The position numbers and the translations under genes are program-made. Below the pieces are notes generated by a model, which was not told the DNA's origin, did no database searches, and was given only the letters and a program-made list of their open reading frames with translations. 64,000 nucleotides of DNA from Eledone cirrhosa (Eukaryota). The DNA is taken from positions 35,278,001 to 35,342,000 of the forward strand of contig OZ024756.1 in assembly GCA_964016885.1 (NCBI GenBank), written 5' to 3'. Shown here piece after piece: positions 45,000 to 53,793 of this stretch; within the stretch, counting starts at the first letter, position 1; each line of letters begins with the position of its first letter.

Positions 45000-45267
45000 T
45001 ATTGTGGGACTGTATGTCTCTTTTATTCTGTTGATTGCTCGTTTCCTTCGCATGGGCACCATCAATATGCATCCAACGATAATGTTCCGAGAGGTGCCAT
45101 TTGTTGACCGAATCCTCAAGCTGTCCCTCGACATATACCTTGTGCGTGAGATGCACGAGTTCCGCCTAGAAGAGGACCTTTACGCCAAACTCATCTTCCT
45201 CTACCGATCACCAGAAACAATGGTCAAATGGTCGCGACGCCCAGATGAAAACAAAAAGAACAACTAA
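45000..45267 (+). CDS. Piezo: Piezo terminal exon A (inner/pore helix + CTD: IVGLYVSFILLIARFLRMGTINMHPTIMFREVPFVDRILKLSLDIYLVREMHEFRLEEDLYAKLIFLYRSPETMVKWSRRPDENKKNN*)
   Basis: Long pyrimidine tract, ttccag|T acceptor in phase 2, intact ORF to TAA. Confidence 0.93.
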
Positions 45268-45454
45268 AACCCTTTTTTATTATTACTAATATTGCTATTA
45301 TTACTATTATTATTATTATTATTTTACAGTATTGTAATTTACCCTGAGCTATTACTTGATCTAGCTTTATTCTTTTATCGAAGGCCACCACCACCACCAC
45401 CACACCGCTCCCTCCTGAGTAAATTGCTTTAATCTGTTTGATATTTGTATCATG

Positions 45455-46572
45455 ATCTAAAGTTGTGAAACACATCTATTAACTACTACACACCTGTGGT
45501 CTAAAGTTGTGAAACACATCTATTAACTACTACACACCTGTGGTCTAAAGTTGTGTAACACATCTATCAACTACACACCTGTGGTCTAAAGTTGTGTAAC
45601 ACATCTATTAACTACTACACACCTGTGGTCTAAAGTTGTGTAACACATCTATTAACTACTACACACCTGTGGTATAACGTGTAACACCTCTTAACTACTA
45701 CACACCTGTGGTCTAAAGTTGTGTAACACCTATTAACTACTACACACCTGTGGTCTAAAGTTGTGTAACACATCTATTAACTACTACACACCTGTGGTCT
45801 AAAGTTGTGAAACACATCTATTAACTACTACACACCTGTGGTCTAAAGTTGTGAAACACATCTATTAACTACTACACACCTGTGGTCTAAAGTTGTGTAA
45901 CACATCTATTAACTACACACCTGTGGTCTAAAGTTGTGTAACACATCTATTAACTACTACACACCTGTGGTATAACGTGTAACACCTCTATTAACTACTA
46001 CACACCTGTGGTCTAAAGTTGTGTAACACCTCTATTAACTACTACACACCTGTGGTCTAAAGTTGTGTAACACATCTATTAACTACTACACACCTGTGGT
46101 CTAAAGTTGTGAAACACATCTATTAACTACTACACACCTGTGGTCTAAAGTTGTGTAACACATCTATTAACTACACACCTGTGGTCTAAAGTTGTGTAAC
46201 ACATCTATTAACTACACACCTGTGGTCTAAAGTTGTGTAACACCTCTATTAACTACTACACACCTGTGGTCTAAAGTTGTGTAACACCTCTATTAACTAC
46301 TACACACCTGTGGTCTAAAGTTGTGAAACACCTCTATTAACTACTACACACCTGTGGTCTAAAGTTGTGAAACACATTTATTAACTACTACACACCTGTG
46401 GTCTAAAGTTGTGAAACACATTTATTAACTACTACACACCTGTGGTCTAAAGTTGTGAAACACATCTATTAACTACTACACACCTGTGGTCTAAAGTTGT
46501 GAAACACATCTATTAACTACTACACACCTGTGGTCTAAAGTTGTGTAACACATCTATTAACTACACACCTGT
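45455..46572. repeat. 41-44-bp minisatellite in the putative 3' UTR of terminal exon A
   Basis: Unit ACACCTGTGGTCTAAAGTTGTGAAACACATCTATTAACTACTAC. Confidence 0.95.
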
Positions 46573-46940
46573 GCATTATATAGCAATTATTATTTTCATA
46601 ACTCACAAATATATTTTGTTTAAAATATTCCCCAATTTCTTAATAAAAAATATTGTTTATCAGTAGAATAAATGATATATCCACATACACACACACGTGT
46701 GTGTATGTGGATAAATATGTGTGTATGTATGTATATATATATATATATATGTGTATATACACACACACATTTATATAGTCACATACATACATACATGCAT
46801 CTATATTAGTACAAATGTACATACACACATATACATCACATACATACATGCAGTTTATGAAAATATACATACACAGCTGTGTGTACATGTCTATTTGTGA
46901 ATATATATATATGTGTGTGTGTGAGAGAGAGCGTGAAGTG

Positions 46941-46975
<35 letters not shown>

Positions 46976-48474
46976 GTAATCATTTCAAGATGTGAAACGA
47001 AACACTTACTTTTTATTTTCAATTTCCAAATCTGTTACAACGATTAAAAATAAACTAAATCAGGAATTAGGTGATAATTATTAACCCCCCCCCCCCACAC
47101 ACACACATACACATCCCCACCATCTCACCCACTGATTATTTATTTGCTTCTTTGAATTTATATTTCAGTATTGTCCATAGCAGCTGTGTTAGTAGTAGCA
47201 TTAGTAATAGCATTAGTAGTATTAGTAATAATAATAGTAGTAGATATTGTTGTCATTGTTGTTCTAACATCCATGTTGTACTAACATCCATGTTGTACTA
47301 ACATCCATGTTGTACTAACATCCATGTTGTACTAACATCCATGTTAAAATATCTGAAATTCACCACAAAAATATCGAAATGAAATTACTTGAATTTCCCA
47401 CAATTACTGGGTTCTATCCCGTTTCTATCACCTTTGCTCTTATCAGACATTTACTGTCACATTGTATATACCTCTGTCTGACTATTTGGTTTATTACAGA
47501 TACCAAACCTTTAATCTGCCCAACTTGGGATTACAGATGTTCCAGATCTTTAGATACAGGCTAGACATATCCCCAAAATGTAAATTAAACAATGAAAAGT
47601 GAAGAATGAAATTATTTAACAGATACAATTTTGATCTTTACTAATCCATTTAAAATTCTTTACCTTTCATCCTTCGTGGATCGATAAAATAAAGTACCAG
47701 TAATGTACTGGGATTGAATTTAATCAAGTTTACCCATTCTCCAAATATGCTGGCCTTGTATCTAAATTAGAAATCAATATTATTGATTTGGTAGATTTGT
47801 TAGAGAGTTTGGTATTTGTTCCGACTCTTTGTTGTGTTCCAAGTTCAGATTCTCTCCCTGCTAACCCCTCCCACCCCAGAGTCCACTTTGCCTTTCATAA
47901 TTTCTTGGTTACTGAAGAAAGAACCAGCCCAGTGCAGAGCTGGCGCAACCCTCTCTAACCTTCCAGTCATCACATTCTATGTTACACTGGATCAAGGGAG
48001 GGAGAATTAAGGTGTTTGTGTCTGCATGAACACCTAAAACCCCTTAGTGAAAACATGGTACACTCTCCCGAGTGATACTCAGTTGTGAGTTACAACCATA
48101 ATTAGTTAGTTGGGAGATATTTAAATTAATCAGGAGAGGAAAGGGGTGCTGTTTATGTTTTTTTTTTTTTTTTTTTTTTTTTTTTTGTTTAGGTCCCACT
48201 GCTTGATTGGTGAGATCAATGTATTTGATGTCCAGCTTAAATATCTGCAGGGAAACCCCATGGATAGGGAGAGAGCCCCCACCCTATTCCTGATTTCTTG
48301 CTGATTCCTATTAAAGACTACCGATGGCTAGGTGCTGATAGTCGTGTTAAACTATAACACAGGTGACAGACTAATTGCTCTTCAGTATTTAGTTTCGTCG
48401 TTGTAGCTGTGAGTTCAATCCCTAATGGGGACTACTTTGTCTTTCATATCACCAAGGCTGCTCTGACACCTTTG

Positions 48475-51966: not shown

Positions 51967-52574
51967 ATGTGAAGAGTAAAATCCGAAGAGGGCTCGATAA
52001 GGATTATATAGATATGATATATATATATATATATATATACACACATCCTGCTGTTAATCTTGAATAAGTGCTCATGTTGTGTCTCCCTGTTTTAACATAT
52101 TACAGTTTGTGTTGTGTGGCTGTTGAAATGTTTATTGGAGTCTATTTTATAAAGTTTCCTCACTAGTTCAAGCCTCATCAGCTTGCTCTCCATGCCTCAC
52201 TATTCTTTTCTCTTATATATTTGATTCCTTACTCTTTGACTCTACAATTTCCTGCATGATTTCCTGCCCTATGCTTGTGTGTGTGTGTATTCTTGCCCTA
52301 TGCTTATGTGTGTGTGTGTGTGTGTGTTGGTGTATTCCTGCCCTATGCCTGTGTATTTCTGCTCTATGCTTGTGTGTGTGTGAGGGTATTCCTTTATTTT
52401 CCATGTTTTCATTTTTTTAATTTGTTTTATTAACAAAAAAAATTATAATTTTCAAAAAATAATTATCAAAATGTCTTTTCTTCATACTTGTTTATATTTT
52501 AACATTTTAACATCAGTCGTTCTTAAGCCTTCTTCATTTTGGCTTCATACTCCATTTCGACATCTCGGAGAACT

Positions 52575-52806
52575 TTAACCCTTTAGCATATACATTACTC
52601 AATATTTACTATTGTATTTTGGGGGGGTTAAGGCTTTATCTCACATAGCTATCTCATATAATATCAAATCTACGAAATTTTGATGTTATTTATTTAGAGA
52701 ACAATGCCTTAACATCAGTATGAGCAGCCAGTTACAGCCAGTTTGAACAGAAAGGGGAGAGGGAATTCTGGCTGGATATGGCTGGTTTAAATACTAAAGG
52801 GTTTAA
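52575..52806 (-). mobile_element. piggyBac-like MITE, antisense copy
   Basis: ttaa|CCCTTTAGCAT … ATACTAAAGGG; internal sequence is the reverse complement of 12919. Confidence 0.8.
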
Positions 52807-53009
52807 TGTCCCACCTCAATATTAAGAACATGTCGGGTGTTAAAATGTTATTATGTAAAATTTAGTAAAAACATTGCCTCCCACTCACTATTTGATGTTT
52901 ACGTTGCTCACCTGTGGAGGAGGGGACACCCCTCCCACTCCAATCATTTAGAATCATTGTTTTAATTGGCAGTTAATAAAGTATTTCTACTACTTTATGG
53001 CGTTTTATT

Positions 53010-53352
53010 CTCCTAGCCATTGTGAGTGACTCAACTATGTTACTCACACTCCTGTAGCCATTGAGTGACTCAACTATCTTACTCACACTCTCCTAGTCAT
53101 TGTGAGTGACTCAACTATCTTACTCACACTCTCCTAGCCATTGTGAGTGACTCAACTATGTTACTCACACTCCCGTCGTTGTGAGTGATTCAACTATTTT
53201 ACTCAATCTCTCCTAAGATTGTGAGTGACTTCTCTATCTTACACTCTCCTAACCATTGAGAGTGACTCAACTATTTTGTTCACACTCACCTAGCTATTGT
53301 GAGTGACTCAACTGTTTTACTCACACTCACCTATCTAGTGTGAGTGACTCTT
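53010..53352. repeat. About 41-bp degenerate tandem repeat, each unit self-complementary
   Basis: TGTGAGTGACTCAACTATCTTACTCACA units. Confidence 0.85.
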
Positions 53353-53540
53353 GTATTTCACCAGGAATATTTTTTACTCAAGTTAAAATGACTTGATTTT
53401 TGTGTTTTTTTTTCTTTTTTTTCGTTTTCAATTTTTATAAGCTTGAAACTTGCTATTTTTTTTGTTTTGATTTTCTATGCCAGTGTGTGCGTGTGTTCTG
53501 AGGCAATGTCTACTGTCAACTGTCATCTTGTCTCTTTCAG

Positions 53541-53793
53541 TATAATTGGTCTCTACGTATCAATGGTGTTTGTAATCGGACGCTTTGCTCGCATGTTTGT
53601 CAGTGAAGTTTCCTATCGTATCATGTTTATGGAGCTACCTCGTGTCGACAACATCTTAAAACTCTGCTTGGACATTTACCTTGTCCGTGAATGCTGTGAT
53701 CTCTGCCTTGAAGAGGAACTGTTTGCTAAGCTTATATTTTTGTATCGCTCACCAGAAACCCTGATACGATGGACAAAGCCGAAATATGACTGA
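53541..53793 (+). CDS. Piezo: Piezo terminal exon B (inner/pore helix + CTD: IIGLYVSMVFVIGRFARMFVSEVSYRIMFMELPRVDNILKLCLDIYLVRECCDLCLEEELFAKLIFLYRSPETLIRWTKPKYD*)
   Basis: tctctttcag|T acceptor in phase 2, intact ORF to TGA. Confidence 0.93.

Follow-up and report, generated by a model that had tools for sequence, protein, structure and literature searches.

A Piezo gene of the octopus Eledone cirrhosa with an old duplicate of its last exon, probably encoding two alternative pore-lining tails

Splice variants of PIEZO2 in mammals were reportedly described by Szczot in 2017. For the A and B variants of Drosophila Shaker, S6 residue 463 shifts C-type inactivation about 100-fold (PMC2223370), and the variants co-assemble into mixed channels (PMC9868669). 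The mammalian PIEZO1.1 variant has a conductance of 44 pS and higher mechanosensitivity (10.1101/2023.09.28.559900). We analysed a 64-kb stretch of the Eledone cirrhosa genome (assembly GCA_964016885.1, contig OZ024756.1, positions 35,278,001 to 35,342,000 of the forward strand; hereafter the window) that contains the downstream part of a Piezo gene. The stretch is AT-rich with many repeats, in a genome of 3.0 Gb. It is highly probable, judged from the sequence, that this is a single Piezo gene whose last exon was duplicated in tandem long ago, and that its transcripts end by alternative last-exon choice.

The last shared exon (31665..31866, + strand; placed by sequence, a tblastn chain and a splice model) encodes the end of the cap, ...FITGYG, and closes on a phase-2 donor, TGG|GTACGT. 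Two homologous exons lie downstream of this one donor, both on the + strand. The coding part of exon A (45000..45267) comprises 88 amino acids and TAA, and that of exon B (53541..53793) comprises 83 amino acids and TGA. The acceptor of A reads ...CCTTCCAG|T at 45000 and that of B reads ...CTCTTTCAG|T at 53541. Both exons thus start CAG|T and finish the split glycine codon, with junctions in frame through ...ITGYG-I. The sequence-only reading had described a donor at 31866 after ...ITGYG and two acceptors in its phase, each leading to an intact frame with its own stop, and we observed each of these features.

Both exons align without gaps to mouse Piezo1 residues 2466-2545. Each matched Piezo chains in 15 of 15 PDB hits (best E 2e-27 for A and 3e-30 for B). 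Residues 2466-2485 of mouse Piezo1 form the inner helix (10.1101/2023.09.28.559900), and the remainder of each exon product is the C-terminal domain (CTD). The earlier description of each exon as a complete pore module needs correction: each encodes the inner helix and CTD (mouse Piezo1 2466-2547), and the outer helix and cap are common to both products.

We observed that A and B are identical at 47 of 83 amino acids, as had been counted by hand, and at 142 of 249 nucleotides. Matches by codon position were 52/83 (first), 64/83 (second) and 26/83 (third). The proportion of synonymous differences was saturated (pS 0.89) and that of nonsynonymous differences was lower (pN 0.30). In the AKLIFLYRSPET block common to both exons, 9 of 12 codons differ synonymously, again as first counted. 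These values, together with orthologues of A and of B in molluscs and in the brachiopod Lingula, support long purifying selection on both copies, in line with the old duplication first proposed. A haplotig or recent duplicate was rejected, as the flanks of A and B are dissimilar and synonymous sites are saturated.

Residues 144-1171 of the Octopus vulgaris Piezo fragment P0001 matched an ordered, single exon chain at 440-31867 (tblastn; 19 matches over 440-31156). The shared upstream exons (440..31160, + strand; tblastn with O. vulgaris P0001 and modelled splice sites) encode distal blade units, anchor, outer helix and most of the cap, all in one colinear gene whose 5' part lies upstream of the window. 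Splice sites could be given, with approximate placement, to 18 of the 19 upstream introns (0.36-4.4 kb). The last 89 residues of P0001 matched two places, 44998-45264 (87%) and 53527-53778 (60%). The nearest named proteins were from O. vulgaris and Argonauta.

Alternatively, B could close a second Piezo gene, or be a haplotig or a product of misassembly. A paper on O. vulgaris does mention two PIEZO-family genes, and a table in the same paper gives four PIEZO1 isoforms (PMC12919962). In a search of the whole 3.0-Gb genome (5 candidates scored for each query), the pore exon matched twice, at A and at B, and an upstream exon matched once. The second copy thus has no upstream exons of its own, and a second Piezo gene was rejected. 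When 15 Piezo proteins were run by tblastn against 31.9-64 kb, no Piezo match besides A and B appeared, as the sequence-only reading had held for the interval between them. A blastn comparison of the 4.5-kb surroundings of A with those of B gave only a 108-nucleotide match, inside the coding part, with no similarity in the flanks, which rules out a haplotig or recent segmental copy. An A/B pair is also present in seven other species. We regard a second gene, haplotig or artefact as extremely improbable; no second Piezo locus, such as a misassembled paralog carrying B, was found in the genome.

We observed the same arrangement in relatives. Same-species isoform pairs that are identical up to the junction and then continue into A or B occur in Crassostrea gigas (identical over 925 residues), Mytilus edulis (1462), Haliotis asinina (2325), Ruditapes philippinarum (2260), Mya arenaria (2270) and the brachiopod Lingula anatina (972). 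Examples of database isoforms with this junction and both exon classes are XP_011438487/XP_011438488, XP_067651569/XP_067651570 and XP_013388062/XP_013388063; these mollusc and brachiopod records are automatic models, labelled merely "isoform X1, X2". Wherever both exons were seen, neither was disrupted. Fused models in Mya and Solemya carry A and then B within one protein, in the order of the E. cirrhosa window. A real protein with two tails in series was rejected as a prediction artefact, because a second helix following the cytoplasmic CTD would place the second CTD on the extracellular side. Among 13 multi-member mollusc and brachiopod clusters, both tails occurred within one species in 6 and only across species in 2 (A in Patella vulgata with B in P. 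caerulea, and A in Pecten and Ylistrum with B in Argopecten). These pairs, together with transcript-derived cephalopod proteins that run from cap to A and from cap to B and with the trees below, support the original claim of one Piezo gene with two alternative terminal exons.

Two Lingula scaffolds (404,512 and 200,107 bases) carry Piezo models (P0322 versus P0213/P0321) that agree in the end of the cap and in their B tail; the scaffolds are probably allelic. Caenogastropod and heterobranch records (P0007, P0008, P0018, P0211, P0212, P0214 and P0215, from Aplysia, Lymnaea, Plakobranchus, Littorina, Bradybaena, Nucella and Elysia) all end in A. Among the gastropods seen, B occurs only in limpets and abalone, and it may be lost, or simply unannotated, in caenogastropods and heterobranchs.

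In cephalopods, the exon A protein is 88% identical to that of O. vulgaris and 85% to that of Argonauta, whose Piezo model ends in A. The O. vulgaris isoforms X3 and X4, which a supplement of PMC12919962 (file 2 part 7) records as assembled transcripts, end in A; a B-type transcript may be among the other two isoforms, X1 and X2. The exon B protein is 88% identical to the Logan contig product P0037. P0037 spans three of this gene's intron positions, ends in this B-type tail and has a cap nearest that of O. vulgaris (the closest of 12 proteins tried), and so probably represents a spliced transcript from a cephalopod; its cap matches the window cap exons at 36-55%. Exon B also matched 4 sequencing runs (one study, none on record as RNA), and in 4/4 of them no record was placed on 53355-54005, possibly through a filter effect, which is neutral on expression.

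The pair could be ancient with B silent or nearly silent in the octopod lineage, as a recently abandoned exon. Both O. vulgaris proteins seen in full and the Argonauta model end in A, as do the tailed contig products of oyster (5/5) and mussel-like (6/6) sequences. These contig counts hint that A is the commoner form. The frame, acceptor and stop of B are nevertheless intact and its length is conserved, and B matches the spliced P0037 at 88% even though the P0037 cap is so much further from the window cap exons. We consider a silent B quite improbable.

We then placed the duplication with a tree of 58 tails and 81 columns (9 near-duplicate or unnamed rows were excluded and 1 row was skipped at extraction). 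All 24 of 24 A-type tails, including that of Lingula, fell in one clade (99/98), adjoined by that of the annelid Ridgeia (95/78), and the 12 B tails did not separate from echinoderm, arthropod and other outgroup tails. The A label was set by eye from sequence, so the clade grouping is partly circular, and approximately unbiased (AU) tests on a 30-row set (LG+G4) are the real test. The AU tests rejected lineage-specific clades of A and B for bivalves (p = 0.0013), gastropods (p = 6e-7) and all molluscs together (p = 0.008), and likewise a cephalopod-specific origin of the pair (p = 0.0007). Because separate cephalopod, bivalve, gastropod and mollusc-only duplications are rejected, the duplication is placed before the three mollusc classes diverged, and probably before the mollusc-brachiopod split. 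B is taken to be the ancestral-like copy and A the derived one. The duplication is older than had been proposed and is not a feature of cephalopods alone. Molluscs and brachiopods diverged more than 500 million years ago.

The tails of the annelid Ridgeia (P0057) and the nemertean Tubulanus (P0362), one recorded for each, carry the SFILVIG helix motif of the A type, and their placement next to or within the A tails is weakly supported; the pair may therefore have an earlier origin in Lophotrochozoa. Only one tail type occurred in Tubulanus (8/8 isoforms) and in the tick Ornithodoros (4/4), which as yet gives no grounds for ascribing the pair to either. A profile search of 50%-cluster representatives (the profile grew to 950 positions and ranked whole Piezos) added no clear A-type tail within its 150 best hits.

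To compare the two pores, we used mouse Piezo1 numbering and 24 A, 12 B and 16 outgroup rows. Position 2473 is F in 24/24 A rows and L, M or A in B; position 2476 is L in 21/24 A and V in 11/12 B. The prevailing residues at positions 2484-2486 are S-T-T for A and F-F-S for B, and position 2516 is M in 24/24 A. At position 2495, R or K occurs in 20/24 A rows and an acidic residue in none, whereas the position is acidic in 7/12 B and 13/16 outgroup rows and basic in none of these. R/K2479, R2482, E2496 and the EE motif are common to both classes. E. cirrhosa A is of the derived type (F2473, L2476, N2487, R2495, M2516; sequence, structure-homologue alignment and trees) and E. cirrhosa B of the ancestral-like type (M2473, V2476, E2487, M2495, C2516; sequence and structure-homologue alignment), with E2496 in both. 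The two exons differ at 2473, 2476, 2487 and 2495, pore-lining positions with gating or permeation roles in mouse Piezo1.

In mouse Piezo1, L2469, I2473, V2476 and F2480 face the pore, and inactivation is set by hydrophobicity at 2475/2476 (PMC6349400). Cation selectivity falls when E2487 and E2495/6 are neutralised (PMC7815867), and E2495/E2496 are tied to Ca2+ selectivity, conductance and block (PMC7796548). From these residues, the A gate would be bulkier and hydrophobic (F2473, L2476), and the A vestibule would have lost acidic charge relative to that of B (N2487/R2495 against E2487/M2495), a difference of two charges per subunit. By analogy with the mouse mutants, we predict, with a little more confidence than doubt, that A has lower Ca2+ permeability or conductance than B and different inactivation.

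Both exons could also be used with the selected difference lying in the 3' untranslated regions (UTRs) or the C-terminal tips, acting on mRNA localisation, stability, trafficking or partner binding, and with conduction and gating alike. A tails are longer (84-93 amino acids, many with a basic KK-N/D end) than B tails (83-84 amino acids; six pairs), scaffold binding also differs between the Shaker A and B tails (PMC9868669), and every pore substitution turns up somewhere in ordinary Piezos. The class-diagnostic columns (2473, 2474, 2476, 2481, 2484-2486 and 2495) are, however, concentrated in the inner helix and vestibule and kept across molluscs and Lingula, and mouse changes at 2475/2476 (PMC6349400) and at 2487/2495/2496 (PMC7815867) alter inactivation and selectivity. 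We think a difference confined to UTRs or tips unlikely.

Several observations weigh against an ancient pair of functionally different, alternatively used pores. The isoform pairs come mostly from database gene models without visible read support, and for E. cirrhosa itself the use of both junctions is presumed. Five of the 13 clusters (O. vulgaris, Littorina, Bradybaena, Elysia and one mussel-like set) hold A only, so that in some lineages B could be infrequent or have been lost. A Lingula-only duplication was not rejected by the AU test (p = 0.083, 30 rows), support for the A clade dropped to 77/94 in the 30-row tree, and the trees are informed by 81 columns only. As for the residues, F2473 occurs in 9/16 and L2476 in 5/16 outgroup rows and neither is exclusive to A; R2495 is also found in tick, nemertean and acanthocephalan Piezos; and E. 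cirrhosa B itself has a non-acidic residue, M, at 2495. A serine substitution at 2473 in mouse Piezo1 left inactivation unslowed (PMC6349400).

Under alternative last-exon choice, the donor at 31866 would join exon A across a 13.1-kb intron, followed by cleavage and polyadenylation after A. Where the A acceptor is skipped and the A poly(A) region is read through, the same donor would join B across a 21.7-kb intron. Each transcript would carry one tail and require no further exclusion device, because each exon has its own stop. From blade and beam through anchor, outer helix and cap the two products would be the same; they would differ in the pore-lining helix and CTD. Both alternative introns are longer than all 18 other modelled introns. 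The A acceptor region (44797..44999, + strand; sequence and splice model) is AG-free over 201 nucleotides and 79% pyrimidine over the last 100, and then reads CAG; this AG-free zone is the longest compared with 18 modelled upstream acceptors (0-166 nucleotides, median about 36). The A acceptor would presumably be the regulated site of the A/B choice.

A 44-bp minisatellite of about 26 copies (45456..46568; no strand assigned) starts 190 nucleotides past the A stop. AATAAA words at 46642 and 46667, both beyond the minisatellite, are candidate poly(A) signals of A, and the minisatellite may therefore lie inside the A 3' UTR. Hexamers of the AATAAA/ATTAAA type occur 1.4 kb past A and 1.6 kb past B, although such words are frequent in this AT-rich DNA. 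Since the cap and outer helix are common to the A and B products, mixed A/B trimers are plausible where both are expressed.

Duplicated Piezo inner-helix modules also appeared outside molluscs and brachiopods. Timema models P0004 and P0094 have two inner-helix half-modules in series (through LPYVDRILQ, then MPNVDRILQ) and one common CTD end; stick insects may thus have an independent pair of inner-helix exons that are used mutually exclusively. The bdelloid rotifer Didymodactylos carnosus model P0125 has two full inner helix and CTD modules in series. These group together (85/88) and not with A, the first copy on a very long branch, and are possibly a further independent duplication.

A 2024 paper describes the roles of Piezo in mollusc and cephalopod sensory biology as uncharacterised (PMC11682238). 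The "single Piezo" of molluscs and cephalopods is probably two channels, and probes, clones and counts based on one 3' end miss the other; gene predictors also merge A and B into a false double tail, as in Mya and Solemya. The pair would be a natural chimera in which one force-sensing blade and cap is fitted with two pores, both retained by selection, probably since before molluscs and brachiopods diverged. It separates properties set by the pore (selectivity, conductance, inactivation) from those set by the blade, and its naturally occurring subunits would allow mixed Piezo trimers to be tested. A wider proposal is that a tissue-regulated swap of the entire pore-lining helix and CTD has given molluscs and brachiopods two functionally distinct mechanosensors since before their split. 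In this proposal the A pore (basic 2495) is poorly permeable to Ca2+ or has a relaxed cation selectivity, mixed A/B trimers form graded intermediates, and splicing provides a counterpart to the vertebrate PIEZO1/PIEZO2 split. We hold this proposal to be possible rather than probable.

A literature search aimed at a duplicated, exchangeable Piezo pore exon found no description, as the sequence-only reading had anticipated; coverage of subscription journals was thin, and absence from print is unproven. The excerpted mollusc and leech papers that mention Piezo gave no account of the A/B arrangement. Alternative last-exon use is a known mechanism; for Piezo it is apparently undescribed, though the sequences are already in databases.

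As in Shaker A/B, one channel gene here has alternative C-terminal variants that differ in the pore-lining helix. Shaker, however, is a voltage-gated K+ tetramer of flies, whereas Piezo is a mechanosensitive trimer in which one exon swaps the whole inner helix and CTD; the Piezo pair, unlike that of Shaker, is kept across molluscs and a brachiopod. PIEZO1.1 likewise involves splicing of a Piezo transcript that tunes the channel, a tuning that is predicted in E. cirrhosa, but PIEZO1.1 loses the lateral plug and retains the inner helix and CTD (10.1101/2023.09.28.559900). Vertebrate PIEZO1 and PIEZO2 (PDB 6bpz, 5z10, 6kg7 and 9vee) also provide two Piezo pore versions in one animal. They arose by whole-gene duplication with the pore helix nearly unchanged, whereas in Piezo A/B the force-sensing parts are common and the tails are 57% identical.

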